Source: Octopus vulgaris
Taxonomy: Eukaryota
NCBI GenBank assembly: GCA_951406725.2
Contig: OX597832.1
Span: 69,564,001 to 69,628,000 of the forward strand
Direction: 5' to 3'
Length of the DNA stretch: 64,000 nucleotides
In this document: piece after piece, positions 22,483-62,305 of the stretch
Position numbering within the stretch: the stretch's first letter is position 1
How the letters are laid out: each line of letters starts with the position of its first letter
Position numbers and translations under genes: made by a program
The notes under the pieces: model-generated
Databases searched by the model: none
What the model was told of the DNA's origin: nothing
The model's input: the letters and a program-made list of their open reading frames with translations, nothing else

Positions 22483-22935
22483 AATCAATGATTAAGGGTA
22501 AAATCAATTAATTATTAATTAATTTCACCAAGTAGTGTTCAGTATGTAAAAGGCGTAGTACTTTACATACTGAACACTATTACATACTGAACACTATTAC
22601 AAGGCGTATTCAAAATATTACGTTATATAATTAGGGCTCAGTAAAATAATTTACTTTGCCACATACTGAAATTTTTAGAAATAGCAGCCAAAAAATGTCG
22701 AGTTTAAATTCGACTAATCTAGAAACGTGAGCGTTCTCAAATAATCTTTGTACATGTGATATTTTGGTGTTTTCCCTCCATATCTACGTGAATTATTTTT
22801 GAGTAAACACTATCTGGGAGACTCTTCTTAAAGTAGTAGAAATGGTTAAAAAAACTTTTTGGCTGCTATTTCTAAAATTTTCAGTATGCGGCAAAGTAAA
22901 TTATTTTACTGAGCCCTAATTATATAACGTAATAT
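22483..22935. mobile_element. Fold-back mini-element in (TA)n
   Basis: 80-bp inverted arms 22615-22694 and 22856-22935 (2 mismatches), with a ~130-bp extension beyond the left arm. Confidence 0.75.
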
Positions 22936-26307: not shown

Positions 26308-28115
26308 TAAAATATGAAAAATCAACGAAAATGCGCATTGCAAATAAAAAAAGGCTTTTTATGAAAGGTAACGACAAATATATACATTTACATAGACGGA
26401 TGTAGTCATAAGAGTCATAAAAGTCATTATTATGAGATGATTATAAGATGATAAGAAAGTAAGAAAACATTACAACCCACAGAAAACACTGAAAAACTAT
26501 CCTCCTTACTCCAAATTTATGGAAAGGGTCTCACTACACATGAAGTAGACTATTTATCCAATTTCAAATGCAGTTCTAGTCTATTCTACGGATTATCCTC
26601 GAACTCAAGTTATACCAATCATCACTAGAAAAATATGGCGCCTCTTTTAATTGCTACTTAAAGGAAGAGATATTTGGATGATTGCTTCATACTTTGGAAA
26701 GACAGCATGGATAAACTCCTTGATTTCAAATGAATGCTCAACAACATACACAGCAATATACAATTCACTATGGAACACAACAGTAAACAACTCCCTTTTC
26801 TAGACATCTTGATTAGAATAGTTAACAACCACATAGAAATAGACATCTTTTATAAACCCACAGATTCTAAACAATACTTATCATTTAACTCCTGCCACCC
26901 CAATTACATAAAAATCAACATACACTTTAACCTAGCGAAAAGAATCTGCACCATAGTTTCGGATACATTTACTCGAGAACAAAGACTCCTTGAACTTAGA
27001 TCTACACTAACTAAAAGACATTACCCAATCTCATTAATAAATGAAGGCATCAAAAGAGCTAAGGAAATAGATATACAAATGTTAAGGAAAACTAGCCGAA
27101 ATACTAAACAAGACTTAAAAATACTCCCGTACATTTCCACACATAACCCTAGAAACAACGAAGCCTTCAAAATCATCACCCAAAATCTTCCCATCCTCAC
27201 AGCAGACAAAACAATGAGCGAAATTTTAAGCTCATACAAAATTATAAAAAGCAAAAATCAACCGAAGTCACTGAAAAAATATTAACCAGCGCAAGACTGT
27301 ATCCACTAACAACAGAGCCAAAAGTGACAAAATGTGGACGTACTGTTGAACATGTCCCCACCTTCTGGAGGGTTAAGAATTTCACTTCAAACAAGAAGAA
27401 ATATTTAAGATCAAATCAAATTTCACCTGCGTCTCAGTAAATATAATCTATGTCATGACATGCATAGGATGTGGTAAACTCTATATTGGACAAACAGTAA
27501 TTTCACTCCGTCAAAGAACCGCCATTCATAAAGAGCAAATTCGCCACCCACAATACAGACAGTTAAAGGTGAGTGAACACATAGAAAGGTGTGCCAGGAA
27601 TCTTAATCCCGATTTCCAAATCTTTCCCTTCTATCAATGTTCACAGAAAACCACAATTCAACAAAGGTTGAATAATGAGGCATTTTTCATCAATAAATAT
27701 CTCCCCCAACTAAATATGAACACACAACTCAATACAGAACACCACTAACTCTTCAATTTAAACCACTAACCCCTATACACTTCCTACACCACTCACATCT
27801 CTTAATCCAGAACTACTTACCTCCCTTACAAATAATCAATTTTTTCAGGAACTATTATGTTTTCAAAGCGAGGAATAGCTTTTTGCAGAAACCATGGTTC
27901 GCTTTGTTTTCTTACTTTATTATCATCTTAAAATCATCTCATAATAATGACTTTTATGACTTTTATTACTACCTCAGTCCATCTAAATATATATATTTGT
28001 CGTTACCTGTCATAAAAAGCCATTTTTTATTTGCAATGTGCATTTTCGTTGATCTTTCATATTTTACACTTACATCTCCACGTGTATTTTATATTTTCTT
28101 TTTGTAACATATTTC

Positions 28116-36014: not shown

Positions 36015-38008
36015 TTTTTTTTAATTATTACAAATCTTCAACTGAAGAGGGAACCGGTTTCCTACAAAGATACAAGGCTCCATCTTTGGGATGTAGCTGA
36101 CACAGACAAATTCATATTTGGAGCTTGAGAAGAGTTTTGCATATTTTTGCTGTTCCATTCACAGATTGCACTTGTAATGTACGGACCAGCTGGTTAGTTT
36201 CTTTTTCTGAAAACTCCAGTTTATCCAGATTCTCTTTCAAGCATTTACCGACAAAACCTAGTGCTCCAATCATTATTGGTATGAATATGAATTCATAGTC
36301 TGTATATAGAAGCTAGAGGTTTCGAAGCAGTTGACCATAGATACCTCTGTCTCTTTGATTTTCAAAGAGATATTTATATCTGCAAGGCAGCTGGCTTCTA
36401 TGATGGTACATACCTTTACCCCTCTGTCCCAAACAACAATATTCGGCCTGTTATGTTTACATTTGACAGAAGTTTTGATGGAAATATTCCACCAGTATTC
36501 CTTAAGTTGGTGTTTATGAATGTATTCCATAACAAAGGGAATTTCTAAGTTTATTTCAGACAGTCTTTTAAATTGTTTTAGCAACAACGTCGTGCCGCAT
36601 AGTGAGGTAGTACCGTGATGGCATTTTCGGACAGCTGCGGATCACATGCGTAATTAATGTCATCCACAGAGAAATGACATAGACTACACTTTAGGATTAC
36701 AAGAGTGTTACTGTCTCTCTTGTTCACAAGGTACTTTGTGGCAATCTCCTCCTCCTGGATTGCAAACGCATAGCCTTCAATGTGTGATGTGATGTGGTCA
36801 TGTGTCAAACAGAGGATGTGGTTCGTGTCAATTCTTCTCTCTTCTTCAAGCTTTCGGACAACATACCCACCCATGGTAATTTCTTCTTTTTTTGGATGCT
36901 GAGTGATTTCCATCCAGATCTCCATGGTAAGAAAGCCCAGTTGTTTTAGGGCTGTATATGAGATCATCAGGAAGAGAGTGTTTCTTGAGGAGTTCATTGC
37001 CAATTCGTACAATGTTGCTCGCTTCATTTTTCGGCACTGCATTAATATATTTATTTTTGCTGCTGTTGTTCAGCAGGTGCTGCCTGAGTGGTACCATACG
37101 GCAATCGAAGGCCGCCTGCACTGATCTCAGCCCTCTACCCACTTCAGTTCGTCTTAGGTAGAGCCTGTCAACATCATTGTTTCTGTGGAAGTTCCCAGTT
37201 GTTGTCAGGCCTTTGCGGGTTTTGATATCTATAGAGTAGAATTCCTCTACAGACCAATCAAGTATCGCAAATGTTGGGATTAGCACTGGTATAGCAAATG
37301 AATTGTGAGATATTGTTTCGTTATAAGAGGTGAGTTCCGACTGCCATATTTTCCTAAGTCTGGTGTAATATGCTCGGGTCACTCTATCTTTATTCACTGT
37401 GCCTTCATATGATACATTTTCGTCTATGCCTAGGTACTTGTAACATTCTATGTGTGGAATGGGGGAGATAGGGAGACTGTTGATGCACAGGTTTTGGGAA
37501 TGGGGGAGATAGGGAGACCGTTGATGCACAGGTTTTGGGTTTGGGAGACTGACTTCCCTCGTTCTATAACAAAATATGAACATTTCTTTTGGTCAAATTT
37601 TATGCCTATATCAGCTGAAAATGCTATTAATCCCATGTGTTTTTTTTATTTTGGCATTGTTAACACTTTTAGCATAAATCTTGAGGTCGTCTACAAAGAA
37701 ATTATGAGCTACGTTGATATTTCTAGCGGTTGAAGATCCTAGTATGTAACCATTTGTTTTATGCAGTAGGAACAATAATGGATTCAGTGCCAAAATGAAA
37801 AGAAGTACAGAAAGACTATTTCCCTGGAATATTCCCTTGGTAATGCTTATACTCTCAGAAAAATTATTCTGTTTTCAGTTGTAAGGGTAAGAATAGTTGT
37901 CCATGTCTTTGCGAGTCTCTCTATAGCAGCAATTAAGGTAGTAGGTACCTTTGCCAGATGTAGGTACTTCAACAGCCATGAACGAGGGATAAGTCGAATG
38001 CCTTCTTA
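36015..38008 (-). mobile_element. Degraded 5'-truncated R4/Dong-type non-LTR retrotransposon
   Basis: KKAFD, KGIFQGNSLS.LLF.LALNPL, HNFFVDDLKIY, YKYLGIDE, DVDRLYL.R..GRGL, CSLC, NRPNIVVWD, IIGALG. Internal ~41-bp tandem duplication at ~37456-37538. Confidence 0.9.
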
Positions 38009-51168: not shown

Positions 51169-51207
<39 letters not shown>

Positions 51208-51222
51208 TTATTATATAGAAGG

Positions 51223-51273
51223 AGCTTCTACAGGACTAGTACTGTTTCATTCAAGAGAAATCTTCAGGAAGCT
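51223..51273 (-). ncRNA. Type I hammerhead ribozyme motif (mirror copy)
   Basis: Exact reverse complement of 53235-53285. Confidence 0.8.
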
Positions 51274-51729
51274 ATTTAACAAGAATTGTATTAGCATTTA
51301 TACATTTAGGCAGGTTTAAAGGAGTGGTGGTGGGGGACTTTTTGGGGGTAGGCATAGCGCAAAATATCATACTCGGGGGAGTGGTCAAGGAGTCAGTGGT
51401 AAGTTAGATGAAAGAATAGATAAATAAAATAGATAAATAAAAAAAATAAAATAAATAAAATAAAAAAATAAAAAATAAAAAAATAAAATAAAATAAAAAA
51501 ATAAAAAAATAAAAAAATAAAAAAATAATAAATAAAAAATATAAAAAATATATATAAAAAATATATATATATAAATAAAATATATATATATAAAAAAAAT
51601 ATAAAAAAATATATATATAAAAAGGGGGGATAGAGTTATAGGTAAATAAGGAGATTCTCACTTATACCTATACACACATGTATACGTATCTACACACACA
51701 TACATACATACACATATATATACACACAC

Positions 51730-51776
<47 letters not shown>

Positions 51777-52243
51777 CCTACACATACACACATACATACA
51801 TACAAATATACATATACATATATATATATATACAATCCAATACAGGCCCATTCCCTAATTTTAATTTTATTATCTTCATTTATTACTTTTGTTATCTTTG
51901 ATCGCTAGGGCTAAGAATCCTGGCAATGGCTGCCTGTCCATTTGTCTGTCTACTAGAAGGCAAGTACTCATTCCCGCACGCACACTCATTAGCACGTACA
52001 TTCACCCATTCGTACACTCATACACATACACGTACGCACGCGTTATATTCATACATACAAACATCTACATACGTTCACGTATATACACATACGTACTCGT
52101 ACCTACAGATTCGTGTCTACACTTTAGGAGGCTAGTCTATACATATACACCAATAAATATACATATATATATATATATATATACCCGCATATACATACAC
52201 ACACACACATATATATATACTCCTACATACAGATACATACCTA

Positions 52244-52295
<52 letters not shown>

Positions 52296-52481
52296 CATAC
52301 ACATACACACATACATATACACACACATACATACACATATATATATACATACACAAACATATATACACACATATATATATATACACATACACACATACAC
52401 ACATACATACGTATACATACATACATACATCCATACATCCATACTTACATGCATTTATACGCATACACACACCCATCTATA

Positions 52482-52526
<45 letters not shown>

Positions 52527-52806
52527 TCACACATGCATATACAAATCTACGCACACACATACATACATACACGTATACGCATACACGCACATACACATAT
52601 ACATGCGTACCCATACACGTGCACACACGCACGCGCATCCATATATATACACACACACACATATATATACACGTGTGCAAACATACATACATACTCATAC
52701 GCGCACACATACTTACAAATACATATATGCACCCACTTACACACATATATATACATACACATATACATGCATACATACACATATGCATACATACACACAC
52801 GCACTC

Positions 52807-52849
<43 letters not shown>

Positions 52850-52920
52850 CATATATATATACATACATAGACATATATACACATACATACACATACACAT
52901 ACATACACACATATACACAC

Positions 52921-52953
<33 letters not shown>

Positions 52954-53234
52954 TACATATATACACATATACATACATATACATACACACACACATACAT
53001 ATATACATATACACTGATACACATACCCATACATACACATGCATATACTTATATCACTACATACTTTTTATTTATCTATTTTATTTATCTATTCTTTCAT
53101 CTAACTTACCACTGACTCCTTGACCACTCCCCCGAGTATGATATTTTGCGCTATGCCTACCCCCAAAAAGTCCCCCACCACCACTCCTTTAAACCTGCCT
53201 AAATGTATAAATGCTAATACAATTCTTGTTAAAT

Positions 53235-53285
53235 AGCTTCCTGAAGATTTCTCTTGAATGAAACAGTACTAGTCCTGTAGAAGCT
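53235..53285 (+). ncRNA. Type I hammerhead ribozyme motif with intact catalytic core
   Basis: AGCTTC-CTGAAGA-T-TTC-TCTT-GAA-T-GAA-ACAG-TACTAGTC-CTGT-A-GAAGCT. Helix I 6 bp, helix II 3 bp plus U.U, helix III 4 bp, GUA cleavage triplet (cut predicted after 53279). Confidence 0.82.
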
Positions 53286-53368
53286 CCTTCTATATAATAA
53301 ATTAATTTTACTCTGCTATGTATTGAGTACCTTACTCACTGTGGTTAACCCCGAATCAACCCGGGACC

Positions 53369-53408
<40 letters not shown>

Positions 53409-53442
53409 TATACATACATACATTCATACATACATACATACA

Positions 53443-53475
<33 letters not shown>

Positions 53476-53659
53476 GTATATATTCCAGTCTTGATGACAA
53501 CTGTCCGACGAATAGAAACGTTAAAATCAGAGTAACAGTTCTTTGAGATGCATTCAACGTATATTTGCCCTCATCTCGGAGAAATTTCGAACCTGGGTTC
53601 TCATTCCTAAGGTATTTTTTGATATCATTATTATTATTGTTGTTGTTCAGGTCCATGCT

Positions 53660-55365
53660 TGGAATCGAAGGATATATTTGCGAAGTGTTGTATTACTCTT
53701 GAATACTGTCCTGATGTCATATAGGCTGCATATCTTTTGTATCTTTTCAGAGAGGCCTTTCGCATAGGGAAGACAGACTGTGGACAGTTTATTGGCCTCA
53801 TCCTCTCTCTTCTTCATAATTAGAGGGAATATTATACTTTTGGGGTAGTTGTTGCTTAGCAGATCGTTATTGAGCTTGATCATTTCTTGGTGGTGTGTAT
53901 CACGATCACTACTTATTTTCTTTGCACGATGTTTTAGGCACTGGGCATTCCTCCTCTTTATAATGTATGGATGGTGGGAATTGAGGTTGAGGTATCATCC
54001 AGTGAAGGTCGGCTTGCTGTATACGGATTTCCTGAATCCATACTTGGTGCATATTGTTAATACGTCCAGGAATGCCAGCTGATTGTCTTTTTCTTTTTCC
54101 ATTGTGAACAGTATGGATGGCTTTATTGAGTTCACATGATCTAACAGCACTTGGACATCTTCCTGGTGGAGCCCGAGTATAAAGGTGTCATCAACCTATC
54201 GTAGCCATAGAGTTGGTTTTAGTGGTGTTGATCCTAAAGCCAAATTCTCAAAGTATTCCATGTATATATTGGCTATTACAGGTGATAATGGCGAACCCAT
54301 AGCTAAACCCTCTTTTGTCGATATATATATTAGTGTCCATACTGAAATAGGTTGTTTTTACACAGAAGGTCAACATTTCCATCAAGTTTCTTTTTGGTAT
54401 ACTAGTGCGTTCTTTTAGATGGGTATCTGTCACTTTTTTCTTGTATCACCGATAGTGCTTCACCGTTGGGATTTTGGTGAACAGACTTATCACAAATTAG
54501 ACTCACCATCTCGTTGGATTCAATGAGGCTATCCTTGATCAATTCTGTGAAGTGGGTGGAATTCTTCATGTACGATGTTGACTTTCCTGCTAATGGACTG
54601 ATTATATCCACAAAGAAGCGGCTCAGTGGATGACATGTTGAACCTTTACAGCACATTATAGGTCTTAATGAAATACCATGCTTGTGAATCTGAGGGAGAC
54701 CGTATATGTGTGGTAGTTTACTGTTGTGTTGAGTCGGTTGTCTGTAAACTTCCTCTTTGTTTTCCGATTTGGGTCTTTCTTTTCTTTGCTTTAGCTACCA
54801 TCACTTATGTGACTTGCCAATTTTTCAGAGTAGTGAGACTTGTTCATCACTACTGTAGCATTGCCCTCGTCCGTTGGAAGTATCATGATGGAATTGTCAC
54901 TCTGCAGTCTTCCTTAGTGATGTTTGATTTAGGAAGTTTTGCTTTTTCTAGTACCTGTCTCACTTTCCACCTTAGTTCATCTCCCTGAGCTTTTGGTATC
55001 TTTATGGCTATCTCTTCGATAGGGGTATGGAATGCGCTTGATGGTTGTCGCAAAGTTGAGATCTTTATTCAGAACTGCTTCTTCAGAGCTGTCTAGATGT
55101 CGGCTACTTATATTAATTACTGATTTCACAGGTAGGTGACGGATTTCAGTCTTCATTCTCTGACCTTTGAGTTTCATAAACTTCTTAATCTGGCATGTCT
55201 TCACCATTTCAAATTCTTTCATGTACGATATTTCCAGATCTTGTTGGATTCTCGTTCTATCATCATTTCTCTTTGATTTCGTTTTTTAATCGATGTTTTT
55301 TTTTTTCAACGGTTGTAATGGATTCTCTCACGGACCACCTCCCCCTGTGGGATGGAACGATTCTG
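53660..55365 (-). mobile_element. Degraded Penelope/Poseidon-type PLE (RT region; endonuclease missing)
   Basis: VINISSRHL...VLNK.LNFA, IYGLPQIHK...LRPI, KNSTHF, GLAMGSPLSPVIANIYME.FE, WLR*VDDTF, FTMEKE....LAFLDV, LNSHHP, LPYAKGLSEKI. Confidence 0.9.
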
Positions 55366-55720: not shown

Positions 55721-56841
55721 AATAAAATATATGCATATATATAAACATGTATGTACGTACCTACCTCTACATGTACATATACACGCATATATGTGTACAG
55801 GACACCAAAAGGACGTCGAACACATAGAGAGACGAAAAACATAGACACAAACCAAGGAACAAGACAAGCAAAAAAAGGAGATACAGGACAATAAGCACAA
55901 CGAAAAATCCCCTTCTTCAGTCGCTAAAGTTTCATCTACTAAACGTTTCGAAGGATAAAAGCGAGACGTATACTTCGAATGAAAAATTCCTTCCCGAGAC
56001 AAGCAAATCAATTAAAATTCTGAGATCTTGTCGCGGAGGGGTAAAAAAGGCAAGACGGTAACGACAGTACAAACATATAAACAGTAAAAAATATATATAT
56101 AAACAGTGGAAAAATAAATATATAACAGTGAGAGACAGGACAAGGAGAACAAGATAAGAAGGGCTGTTAACGCCAGACGAAAAAAGTATTGCAAACGCTG
56201 GATTATAGTGGACGACGAGAGAGGAAGATGTCGACCAGTGGCCTTAGAAGGCAGGTGAGGAAAGACAGGAAAGCAGTTACGACGGAAGTACGTCGCAGAT
56301 GGACGACGGGAATGGGGGAGGAGGAGCAAGAGGAAGAGAGAGAAGAAGGGGAATGGTGCGAGGAGACCATGAAGAACAGTGAGGGGGAGAGAGAGAGGAA
56401 GAGACAAGTTAAGTGAGGGAAAAAGGACGAAAAAGGGAATGGGAGAGAAAGAAAGAAAGAGGCAGAGTCGCGTGAGAGTTAATATCAAGGCGAACTTGAT
56501 AAACAGAACAATCTTACTTAATAGGGTGCGTGCGTTTAGTCGTATAATATGTTAATAAAATATATGCATATATATAAACATGTATGTACGTACCTACCTC
56601 TACATGTACATATACACGCATATATGTGTACAGGACACCAAAAGGACGTCGAACACATAGAGAGACGAAAAACATAGACACAAACCAAGGAACAAGACAA
56701 GCAAAAAAAGGAGATACAGGACAATAAGCACAACGAAAAATCCCCTTCTTCAGTCGCTAAAGTTTCATCTACTAAACGTTTCGAAGGATAAAAGCGAGAC
56801 GTATACTTCGAATGAAAAATTCCTTCCCGAGACAAGCAAAT

Positions 56842-56845
<4 letters not shown>
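55714..56845 (-). mobile_element. Non-coding partial-tandem element (299-bp direct repeats, 833-bp period) in (TA)n, PLE pseudo-LTR-like
   Basis: 55714-56012 and 56547-56845 are identical by eye. No TG..CA LTR ends or PBS were seen; both ends abut (TA)n. Confidence 0.7.
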
Positions 56846-56872
<27 letters not shown>

Positions 56873-56885
<13 letters not shown>

Positions 56886-57975
56886 GGGATGTCCGATGTA
56901 GCCTGGCCCATGATGTTGGTCTTCTTAAGGCTGATAACTAAGCCAAAGTCGTTACATGCTTGCTCAAAACAGTTAATGAGCCTTTGGAGGGCTTCTTCTG
57001 TGTGTGTTACCAGAGCGGCATCATCAGCAAATAACATCTCCTTGATCAGGACGTTTCTGATTTTGGTCTTGGCACGCAGGCGCGAGAGATTGAACAGTTT
57101 CCCGTCACTTCTACTGTGCAGAAACACTCCATCATCTGATGTCTGAAAGGCATGTGAAAGTAAGAGTGAGAAGAAGATGCCAAACATACATATTGGAGAC
57201 CACAGATTACAAGAGGTGGAGAAGTTTACTTATCTGGGCTCTACCGTCACCTACAACCTATCCCTTGACGCTGAGCTCAATATACGCATTGGCAAGGCAG
57301 CTGCTGCGATGGCCCAACTCTCCAAACGGGCATGGGACAACAATAAGCTGACCAAGACCACGAAAATGAAGATCAACCAGGCATGTGTACTCAGCACTCT
57401 ACTGTATGGCAGCGAGACCTGGACGCTATACACACGCCAAGAGCGTCGCCTAAACATCTTTCACCTGCGCTGCCTCCGAAAAATCCTCCGCATCAAAAGG
57501 CAGAATCATATCCCCAACAAAGATGTTCTCAGGCAAGCAGGAGTACCAAGCATGTTTGCACTCCTCACACAAAGACGTATGAGATGGCTTGGGCATGTTA
57601 GCCGTTACAGGGATGTTTGCAAAAGGGATATGAAGGCCTGCAACATCAATATTAGCGGTTGGGAGGCAGTTGCCGGCAACCGTGGAGAATGGCGACGTAC
57701 AGTAAAAGAGGGAATACAAAAGAGTGACAGAGAGAGAGAGGAGAAATGGAAAGAAAGGAAGAGACGTAAACAAGAGACTATGGCACTACAACCAGCCAGG
57801 AACAGTCTTCGCTACATTTGCGGTACCTGCCAGAGGGAGTGTTTGTCCAGGATAGGACTACACAACCACAGCAGGAAATGTATCAGGGCATGAAATATAA
57901 AAGCCGGACTAGACTACAAAAAAAAAAAAAAAAAAAAGAATGCGCAACTCCATTGTCTCCCGAGATGCCAATACA
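56873..57975 (+). mobile_element. RTE-clade LINE, 5'-truncated, with an inverted 5' segment (56873-~57187 on minus strand)
   Basis: Minus strand: FGIFFSLLL...DGKLFNL.RLRAKTK...MLFADDAAL...FGL.ISLKKT..PNIH. Plus strand continues PNIHIGDH.L.EVEKFTYLGS...LSTLLYGSETW...WLGHV...C..C.R.C.SRIGL..H...C. Confidence 0.93.
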
Positions 57976-60328: not shown

Positions 60329-62180
60329 TAGCAGAATTGCCCGGCGATGCTCGGGGCTGAATTGCTTGAAAGTACTGTTAATGATTGCACTGAATTATGA
60401 TGATTATTCAGGCAAATACTGATATAAGTTTACGGTGGGAGATAAGGACTTAACGATCAAACGTGTACCATTGCATTGTTTTGGGGGAACCAAATTTCTG
60501 ATGAGCATTATAGGAGCACCAACTTTAAGTTTGAGAATGTGTGGTGGTAGTCCGGGGTGCTCAAAGGAATTGAGTACCTCTATTGGATAGTTGATGACGT
60601 CCTCTGGGTCAGGAGTTGTATCGATAGACTTATATACATAAACTTCCCCAGGAATGAGTTTTAGCATTTCATCATTAATATGGTGAACAGTTTTATTCTT
60701 CGGGGCCAGAATAGCCCTTTGGCCAATCCAATCCATATTCTGACAATTAGCTTGTAGATCTGGGAACACTGCATCTCTGAGATCAGAAGGCGTTTTAACA
60801 ATGGTACAAATGGAATCGATGGCAATATTACCATTTTCATCCCCTGGTATTTTGCCTTCGCCAAGTGCAAGGAGGGTGTGAGGAAATGCTGCTGATGTGA
60901 TATTAAGTCGCATATGAGCACGCATATTGGTGTGAAGTTGAGAGTCTTCACCAGTGGCCACAATGTGGATGACTTAAGACAGGCACTTACTGCATCAGCT
61001 GTAGTCGCTTTGGGAATAACGGGAAGTGTTTGTCGGAAGTCCCCTGAAAGAAGAAGTGTTATGCCTCCCATGTGAGCTGAAGAGTGTTTGATGTCTCTGA
61101 GAGATCTGTTCTAGATGACGTCCTCAAGAGCATGGGTCAGGAGTTGTATCGATAGACTTATATACATAAAGCTTGCATCCCAGGAATGAGTTTTAGCATT
61201 TCATCATTAATATGGTGAACAGTTTTATTCTTCGGGGCCAGAATAGCCCTTTGGCCAATCCAATCCATATTCTTCAATTAGCTTGTAGATCTGGGAACAC
61301 TGCATCTCTGAGATCAGAAGGAAAGTTTTAACAATGGTACAAATGGAATCGATGGCAATATTACCATTTTCATCCCCTGGTATTTTGCCTTCGCCAAGTG
61401 CAAGGAGGGTGTGAGGAAATGCTGCTGATGTGATATTAAGTCGCATATGAGCACGCATATTGGTGTGAAGTTGAGAGTCTTCACCAGTGGCCACAATGTG
61501 GATGACTTAAGACAGGCACTTACTGCATCAGCTGTAGTCGCTTTGGGAATAACGGGAAGTGTTTGTCGGAAGTCCCCTGAAAGAAGAAGTGTTATGCCTC
61601 CCATGTGAGCTGAAGAGTGTTTGATGTCTCTGAGAGATCTATCTAGTGCCTCAAGAGCATGTCTGTGGGCCATCGTGCATTCATCCCAAACGATAAGCTT
61701 GCATCGTCTGAAGACTTCTGCCTGATCGGAGCTGTTACTGATGTTGCAAGTTGGCGTCTCAGTCTTCGCTAAGTGAAGCGGAAGCTTGAAAGTGGAGTGA
61801 GCTGTCCTGCCGCCTGGCAACAAAGTAGCCGCAATTCTAGATGATTCCACAGCTAGGGCAATGCCTTGTGTTCGCCTAATCTCAGCCAATATTAATTTGT
61901 TGACAAAAGTTTTCCCAGTGCCCCCAGGAGCGTCCAGGAAAAAAATCCTCCCAGTTTTGGCCCGGACTGAATTAACAACGGAGTTGTAAGCGAACTTGTG
62001 TTCTGGAAGGAGCTTTGGCTCATTGTCGGCTATGTACTCGGCAAGCTCATCAACATTAAAACATGTCTCACGCAGCAAATGTGAAGACAGAGTGTTTGTG
62101 CCTTCCCGGTTTGTTAAAGGTAGGCCATAGACCGGCAAGGAACTACCGCCCATATCAAGTACAGTATCTTCGAACGTAGT
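60328..62180 (-). mobile_element. Helitron fragment: PIF1-family helicase region plus canonical 3' end
   Basis: FLDAPGGTGKTF, IAATLL.GGRTAHS.FKLP, IVWDECTM, LSGDFRQTLPV, ILAPKN, LKLKVGAPIMLIRNL..CNGTRL. 3' hairpin CCCGAGCATCGCCGGG, then CTAG (60328-60331) followed by T. Confidence 0.95.
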
Positions 62181-62305
62181 TTGTTACCACACAGCCACAC
62201 CTGCCCCTATGTATGTGTGTGTGTGTGTGCGTGTGTGTGTGTATGGGTAGATATATTATGCATGTATATATGTGTATATATATATGTGTACATATAACAT
62301 GTACA

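Follow-up and report, generated by a model that had tools for sequence, protein, structure and literature searches.

A probable head-to-head pair of 5'-truncated Penelope-like retrotransposon copies with hammerhead motifs in an octopus (TA)n repeat

The locus described here, which is part of a 64-kb stretch of octopus DNA (the window), very probably consists of two 5'-truncated copies, joined head to head, of a young Penelope-like retrotransposon that shows Hydra-clade motifs. The pair lies in a (TA)n target and likely goes back to one event, in which the protein of the element cleaved the two target strands and a separate cDNA was primed from each end. Its identity as copies of a young Penelope-like element (PLE) is close to certain. 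Taken singly, the locus is mostly an ordinary truncated transposon insertion with an architecture that has already been described. Across the family, each pair combines one long and one short 3' end, and this strict pairing likely reflects the mechanism of its copying into DNA.

Anatomy of the locus

The features of the locus are listed in Table 1. A perfect inverted repeat of 238 bp had been predicted originally, and it was found: the arms (51206-51443 and 53065-53302) comprise 238 nt each, are 100% complementary, and are separated by a spacer of 1,621 nt. The interior had been described as mostly microsatellite DNA lacking an RT. It indeed consists of 80% tandem repeat (TRF), versus 18% for the window, and neither an RT nor another ORF was found in the interior of the window copy.

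Table 1. Coordinates of the features in the window
Feature	Position	Strand	Basis or remark
Left flank, (TA)n target	51183..51205	.	sequence
Left copy, 5'-truncated element (microsatellite-rich 3' region and pLTR)	51206..53064	-	1,859 nt; short 3' end, 23 nt past the hammerhead cut site
Left arm of the perfect inverted repeat, portion common to the right copy	51206..51443	-	complementarity
Type I hammerhead motif, left copy	51223..51273	-	mirror of right copy; C3 at 51267, predicted cut between 51229 and 51228
Unpaired interior: 3' untranslated region of the element with 80% tandem repeat, in the longer copy only	51444..53064	-	marker order, alignments
Head-to-head junction of two truncated 5' ends, 1-nt (T) overlap	53064..53065	.	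strand switch here
Right copy, short 5'-truncated element (pLTR and tail), long 3' end	53065..53375	+	about 311 nt
Type I hammerhead motif, right copy	53235..53285	+	core pattern, descriptor search; predicted cut after A53279
Alternative hairpin, takes helix I 3' strand and cut site	53278..53292	+	predicted; pair probabilities about 0.5 (78-nt context) and 0.9 (176-nt context)
AATAAA immediately 5' of the short 3' end (likewise in the second family)	53296..53301	+	sequence
PLE tail (about 70 nt), from the short to the long 3' end	53303..53375	+	arm-end comparison; in full-length copies continuous with the ORF
Right flank, (TA)n/(TACA)n target	53376..53472	.	sequence

Two further proposals had to be revised, namely that the inverted repeat is the terminal structure of the element and that the microsatellites are cargo specific for this locus. 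At other loci, the markers of the interior keep a fixed order upstream of the pLTR, and, thus, the window contains a minus-strand copy of 1,859 nt and a plus-strand copy of about 311 nt, joined head to head. The left copy has the markers in family order on the minus strand. Past the junction point the family sequence carries on in five other loci, and the window changes strand there. Judged from these alignments, the "inverted repeat" is the stretch contained in both copies, i.e., the overlap of two independently truncated copies. The long arm including its microsatellites could be aligned over about 1.8 kb with locus L037, with six mismatches and 14 gap events (the best of 65 arms; median 21 mismatches), showing that the microsatellites travel with the element; they belong to the family's own 3' region and occur in fixed order in other copies.

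The right end of the element, originally placed at 53369, was corrected to 53371-53375, and the last 4-5 bases are common to the target repeat. The tail terminus is a predicted stem-loop (53341-53371) with an A/C-rich loop. No target-site duplication was definable within the flanking (TA)n/(TACA)n repeat. At the start of the pLTR (53065-53140, plus strand), a pyrimidine-rich tract and branch-point-like words are followed by an AG, which resembles a splice acceptor; speculatively, the microsatellite 3' region could be a retained intron.

The original prediction was an inverted-repeat element of a retrozyme- or MITE-like type, which is non-autonomous, has hammerheads in its terminal arms, and has captured microsatellites. 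The absence of an ORF from the window copy, the perfect inverted arms and the (TA)n target would agree with such an element. It is nevertheless very improbable, as the interior is family sequence in a fixed order with an RT-EN ORF upstream, each locus has its own arm and spacer lengths, the two ends are unequal, and the loci examined showed no short tandem units with hammerheads.

Several other elements or remnants were noticed elsewhere in the window. The region 53650-54794 (minus strand), directly right of the target repeat, contains what we take, from its motifs, to be RT ORF fragments of an older, broken PLE-like element. The region 26734-27745 (plus strand) resembles the 3' part of a further PLE, comprising a thumb and a GIY-YIG that contains cysteines and histidines; its profile match to the family alignment was weak (probability 74%). 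The regions 7106-8188 (plus strand), 36276-37592 (minus strand), 56765-57893 and 60404-62183 (minus strand) are presumably transposon remnants with LINE-like RT C-termini and a PIF1-like helicase typical of Helitrons.

The element family and its protein

The genome (2.8 Gb, 227 contigs) was searched for copies of the family. A count of arm copies, as had been suggested, revealed many near-identical insertions: the right arm plus 67 nt beyond it yielded 928 first-look candidates, which is not a copy number, and the best 40, which were scored, were all 99-100% identical. This agrees with the prediction of a young mobile element with a hammerhead motif; the identity of the two arms, from which youth had been concluded, comes partly from a shared donor and not from youth alone. 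All 30 loci inspected stop at the same point, followed by (AT)n. In public sequencing runs, four organisms hold at least half of the sampled words of the sequence; RNA runs were not among the holders listed, which has no bearing on expression.

The full layout, pLTR(hammerhead)-tail-ORF-3' region-pLTR, was seen with 35 loci chosen by an ORF fragment. Full-length members of the family are, therefore, protein-coding, in addition to what had been noted for the interior of the window copy. At locus L105 the unit spans 5,387 bp between the two cut sites, the ORF has 713 aa, and the distance from stop to cut is 3,108 nt, 67% of which are tandem repeat. This microsatellite-rich 3' region of 3.1 kb is common to the young subfamily and inherited from copy to copy. 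Part of it is 75-85% like a separate (TA)n-inserted repeat at 22495-22927 of the window, and, therefore, the 3' region may have grown by nested insertion and slippage in a source copy. The window segment 22480-22930 is a small repeat with inverted arms of about 80 nt in (TA)n; fragments of this repeat family are also embedded in the 3' region of the element and in L109.

Neither an RT nor a GIY-YIG domain was recognized by Pfam in the 713-aa protein, and PDB sequence searches returned nothing for it. Protein homologs were numerous, with 1,241 at E<=0.001 among 8,000 candidates scored, and the named members of the homolog clusters were from Acropora millepora and Sanderia malayensis, which would fit the Hydra clade. 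The structure predicted from a 116-sequence alignment had a pLDDT of 92.6. Telomerase RTs were the top structural matches (Foldseek E 4.6e-9; VIA Z 17.5, rmsd 4.2-5.3, about 300 aligned) in a search that covered residues 1-479, and a YRDD is present at residue 347. By this model, the ORF encodes a telomerase-related RT. The protein has a GIY-YIG-type end by sequence, with VY (587), YIG (603) and a downstream R/E/N pattern, and the endonuclease (EN) assignment is putative; the homolog P0001 was above the Pfam GIY-YIG cut-off.

The Hydra clade comprises PLEs with a C-terminal EN (EN+), e.g., Hydra-1_Obim, Penelope-13_HM and Penelope-1_NV (Craig et al. 2021, PMC8557442). In the accessible part of that paper, the clade is characterized by RWK, a change of DKG to DKT, a CxCX5C linker, and an EN without CCHH, in which CxxC and CxH flank a conserved E and N; further traits are a canonical pLTR hammerhead, (TA)n insertion, and a size generally <3 kb. 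In the octopus protein, RWR is present at residue 38, a conservative variant of RWK (RW[KR] in 113 of 120 homologs), DKT at residue 116, with no DKG, and the CxCX5C linker at residues 567-575 (in 110 of 120 homologs). CCHH is absent from the EN, which has a single cysteine between VY and YIG, and CDLC (CxxC) and CMH (CxH) are found at 667 and 695, respectively. Judged by these residues, the full-length protein carries the diagnostic motif set of the Hydra clade.

The PLE features named in PMC8557442, i.e., pLTRs from partial tandems, an inverted 5'-truncated partner and a one-sided tail, were all present. The same is true for the pLTR hammerhead and the (TA)n insertion of the Hydra clade, while the unit of 5,387 bp exceeds the size of generally <3 kb, which is a descriptive trait. 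A Neptune-type element was considered and dropped for Hydra on the clade definition of PMC8557442. Two other classes were rejected: non-LTR retrozymes are short non-coding tandem hammerhead units, and here a coding unit of 5.4 kb and a head-to-head arrangement were found; MITEs or foldback DNA transposons have symmetric terminal inverted repeats of fixed length, and here the ends were unequal and the arm lengths varied independently from 33 to 5,724 nt across 48 pairs.

Most of the young copies (L071-L113) are frameshifted about 1.45 kb into the ORF (e.g., L084:4940-4990), at a C-run located past the RT thumb and ahead of the endonuclease linker. Of 39 matched arms, 34 were out of frame and five in frame; L105 and L106 are in frame and have an interrupted C-run. 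The cause is either a defective source amplified in trans, or ribosomal slippage, or an assembly homopolymer error. Another break, near residue 330, is shared by L109, L110 and L114.

A protein search of the genome for further Hydra families, made as a stricter first look, retrieved one second family only (L115-L124). This is also a young Hydra-type family, with 43% protein identity, a 727-aa open frame in most of 63 scored matches, and a unit of about 3.36 kb. A hammerhead built of other helices occupies the same position, and the family has two 3' ends of its own, at +37 and +104-108, with AATAAA right before the short end.

Two 3' ends, their pairing, and the insertion route

The ends of 145 distinct arms, numbered in nt past the hammerhead cut site, fell into two groups: 67 were located at +12 to +26, including 47 at +23, where the left copy of the window also ends, and 66 at +91 to +96. 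The other 12 run on or are parse stops in diverged copies, and none was at the cut site. Both ends share 3-5 A/T bases with the target.

The two ends were strictly combined. For 40 loci selected by the tail, 28 had an inverted partner with a short end and none had a partner with a long end; nine were without partner in the stretch examined or uncalled, and three were complex. The 35 loci chosen by the ORF fragment are blind to the tail, and here all 22 called head-to-head pairs consisted of one long and one short end, in the two orientations 12 and 10 times. The chance of this result is 0.5^22 if the ends were independent. The remaining tail-blind loci were single or uncalled (12) or complex (one), and L071, one of the 12, was a 23rd such pair by eye. 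The two sets together gave 50 script-called pairs; two of the 22 tail-blind insertions are also in the first set. The same pairing was observed in six of six pairs of an older subfamily and in two of two pairs of the second family. Complex loci (L031, L035, L057, L080, L097) have at least three arms; they apparently contain additional short inverted pieces, or one copy that went into the (TA)n of a second one.

The two arms of a locus were also closely related to one another. Over 0.6-1.1 kb, the median distance between arms was 12 edits within a locus versus 79.5 between loci, the partner arm was the nearest one in 14 of 17 cases, and a length variant of about 400 nt was concordant between the arms in all 17. 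The signal was weaker on short stretches: the partner was nearest in 17 of 30 cases over 450 nt, and the 170-nt core gave only a weak contrast, with means of 0.4 edits within and 0.6 between loci. These distances indicate that both arms of one locus share a donor.

An assembly fold-back artefact would fit the 100% identity of the arms, and assemblers have been troubled by inverted structures of PLEs (PMC8557442, in the part accessible). In addition, the junction in the window lies outside of short-read contig coverage, as a masked repeat (52990-53055) kept it out in four runs. Such an artefact is nonetheless hardly credible. Each arm terminates at its own recurring biological point and adjoins its own flank, and 50 script-called pairs, from this locus and others, have the same architecture with different lengths. 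The arms of sister loci differ slightly in repeat lengths and are, therefore, not mirror images. The short end was also seen in independent runs, since the short-read contigs of runs X1, X3 and X4 depart from the sequence at 53302 into (AT)n.

The two 3' ends could represent two start sites of reverse transcription, each aided by pairing of 3-5 A/T bases with the target. The element protein would cut both target strands, and each cut end would prime its own cDNA, one per start site. The template of both cDNAs would probably be a single RNA that is read twice, or else two RNAs with a common donor; both cDNAs would stop early and would then be joined at their far ends. Since the start sites lie downstream of the hammerhead, the 3' hammerhead of the template would be uncut or re-ligated (circular RNA). 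To our knowledge, the RTs of PLEs are devoid of RNase H, and, thus, an RNA template could be read twice. For the Poseidon PLE in vitro, the accessible part of PMC11167929 reports that the protein cuts and extends both strands, that two internal RT start sites define the tail, and that the protein is predicted to be dimeric. Tandem copies such as L090 are consistent with the circle model of PMC4209133.

Judging from the anatomy of the insertions, priming of both cut strands, one per site and from one donor, is considered the probable route, with moderate confidence. A more far-reaching version is put forward tentatively: a dimeric RT-endonuclease on both cut strands might read one RNA twice, from two sites about 70 nt apart, which would result in exactly one tail per inverted pair and in donor-matched arms. 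The element might at the same time be a self-propagating vector of compound microsatellites; with every insertion into (TA)n, it would bring along (TA/TG)-rich DNA, up to about 6 kb, and would seed targets for itself and for other (TA)n-seeking elements.

The main rival to two-site priming is self-priming of antisense RNA (PMC3846280). More generally, the same element could have folded back, with the antisense RNA or the first cDNA priming itself and the EN later trimming the two ends unequally. Fold-back has been proposed for head-to-head Penelope copies (PMC3846280), and the tail has been ascribed to EN-mediated resolution (PMC8557442). It would directly explain the shared donor, and in about seven of 48 pairs the arms were near-equal (within about 130 nt). 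However, fold-back of the first cDNA needs the tail-bearing arm to be the longer one. The tail was on the longer arm in 27 of 48 pairs and on the shorter arm in 21, including the window locus, where the right, tail-bearing arm extends 232 nt from the cut versus 1,819 nt for the left arm. The one-long-one-short rule and the donor matching, combined with a tail on the shorter arm, rule out a simple cDNA fold-back for these 21 pairs. In addition, the junction in the window has an overlap of 1 nt and no palindrome. Self-priming of an antisense RNA would be compatible with these data. All in all, fold-back is regarded as unlikely, and two-site priming is preferred.

The hammerhead motif and comparison with known systems

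As originally predicted, each arm contains a hammerhead motif, and the helices, the core, the GUA and the AAUAAA were all located. In the right copy, helix I (AGCUUC/GAAGCU) is at 53235-53240/53280-53285, the core at 53241-53247 (CUGAAGA) and 53260-53263 (GAAA), helix II consists of a U.U followed by 3 bp, and helix III of 4 bp with an 8-nt loop containing ACUAGU, next to the GUA of the predicted cut site. All parts of the type I core (C3-A9, G12-A14, A15.1-U16.1, H17) and the three helices are present, labeled by what we take to be the usual numbering. A descriptor search gave two matches in the 64-kb window, one in each arm and no others, versus a mean of 0.05 per window in 60 locally shuffled windows. 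No Rfam hammerhead model matched at the gathering score or at E<=10, and the folding z-scores of three single-strand fragments were around 0, i.e., they fold no better than shuffles. Thus, the evidence for the motif comes from its core pattern and from comparison rather than from stability.

Constraint was analyzed with 55 arms from 34 loci, mostly of older subfamilies. Changes at the subfamily level were absent from all 38 positions of core and helices and affected 35 of the 238 others (Fisher p 0.007, the positions not being independent events); the changed positions outside of core and helices include N7 and loops II and III. This distribution indicates that the hammerhead is under selection across subfamilies, in source elements. 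Helix covariation among copies, which had also been considered, was not observed: there was no compensatory change within the family in the 55 aligned arms, and RNAalifold with four family variants recovered helix I only, with no compensatory pair.

A weak helix II, based on the U.U at 10.1-11.1, and a need for dimerization had been proposed. The U.U is not a defect, because it is present in 14 of 25 Hydra families (File S2 of PMC8557442, counted by eye) and, thus, a common state of Hydra-clade hammerheads. Helix III is near-palindromic, with a predicted energy of -15.2 kcal/mol for the homodimer versus -1.4 kcal/mol for the monomer hairpin; the ACUAGU palindrome is restricted to the youngest subfamily, and CUAG is retained in older ones. 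The two copies of the locus cannot dimerize in cis, because any one transcript carries one sense hammerhead together with its perfect antisense. Metazoan PLE hammerheads cleave weakly alone or need protein, according to the accessible parts of PMC4209133 and PMC11167929. In source elements, the hammerhead probably processes multimeric transcripts, with the help of protein or dimer formation.

The copy in the window is probably silent, because a read-through RNA would contain the sense hammerhead preceded by its perfect antisense, with predicted energies of -434 kcal/mol for the 238-bp duplex versus -7.3 kcal/mol for the hammerhead fold. Such a duplex would bury the ribozyme, and in a longer context the hairpin of Table 1 is also predicted to outcompete the hammerhead fold. 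A functional window copy, the read-through RNA of which self-cleaves or yields regulatory dsRNA, would be in line with the intact core and helices, with the 238-bp duplex that would form, and with the small RNAs from Penelope copies in rotifers (PMC3846280). It is considered improbable: duplex and local hairpin both compete with the ribozyme fold, stand-alone cleavage by metazoan PLE hammerheads is poor (PMC4209133, PMC11167929), and a simple ORF scan, which is a weak test, revealed no host exon in the window or in 10 kb on either side. In this truncated copy with an uncertain promoter, the hammerhead is probably a silent passenger. A read-through transcript might form dsRNA for ADAR or Dicer, as had been proposed, and sister loci have far longer potential duplexes (shorter arm up to about 4 kb).

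The octopus family shares many features with the Hydra clade as described in the accessible part of PMC8557442: a single RT-EN ORF of about 700 aa with RW(K/R), DKT, CxCX5C, CxxC and CxH and without CCHH, a (TA)n target, a pLTR hammerhead with an ACAG/CUGU helix III and a U.U pair, and an inverted 5'-truncated partner, noted there for Penelope-13_HM. It differs in its unit of 5.4 kb, versus 1.1-3.0 kb for the 27 families listed, and in a loop III of 8 nt versus 1-3 nt. The large unit is due to the 3.1-kb microsatellite-rich 3' region, which is unusually long given the sizes of these 27 families. The family is not Hydra-1_oBim, because the hammerhead helices differ (File S2 of PMC8557442, read by eye).

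With Poseidon PAc of Anolis (PMC11167929, accessible part) it has in common two fixed 3' ends that define a tail, both downstream of the hammerhead, an AT-rich target, and a long end beside a stem-loop with an A/C-rich loop. In contrast, PAc belongs to another clade, its tail has 30-40 nt versus about 70 nt here, and its priming has been characterized as non-homologous, in contrast to the 3-5 A/T bases that each end of the octopus element has in common with the target. In addition, the first ATG is downstream of the tail in the octopus family and not inside the hammerhead. Adineta vaga Pen1 (PMC3846280) also has a long spacer of apparently foreign DNA between ORF and 3' pLTR; that spacer comprises 0.9-1.5 kb of unique host DNA and is copy-specific, whereas the octopus region has 3.1 kb, is two-thirds tandem repeat, and is subfamily-wide.

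A type I pLTR hammerhead with a near-palindromic helix III is common to metazoan PLE hammerheads and non-LTR retrozymes (PMC4209133; bioRxiv 10.64898/2026.07.22.740005), and hammerhead pairs on opposite strands are already contained in PMC4209133. Unlike the non-LTR retrozymes, the octopus family is protein-coding and not a short tandem non-coding unit. Inverted 5'-truncated partners, one-sided tails, (TA)n bias and pLTR hammerheads are published PLE and Hydra features (PMC8557442), and the origin of tandem and inverted PLE copies is called unresolved there. In one octopus, 31 recently active Penelope-like families have been reported, and repeat libraries such as that one may hold this family (PMC13282606, accessible part). 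No description of the family, the strict end pairing, the donor matching or a microsatellite-filled Hydra 3' region was found in the literature searched, which contained few subscription papers and neither Repbase nor Dfam.

Since dozens to hundreds of nearly identical insertions carry microsatellite "barcodes" of their donors, models of priming are testable from the genome alone. A retroelement that carries kilobases of compound microsatellite is one way for such DNA to spread in a microsatellite-rich genome, and the family scatters long, perfect inverted repeats, which could form dsRNA where transcribed. Relative to the literature searched, the unusually long microsatellite 3' region and the one-long-one-short rule with single-donor arms are new.
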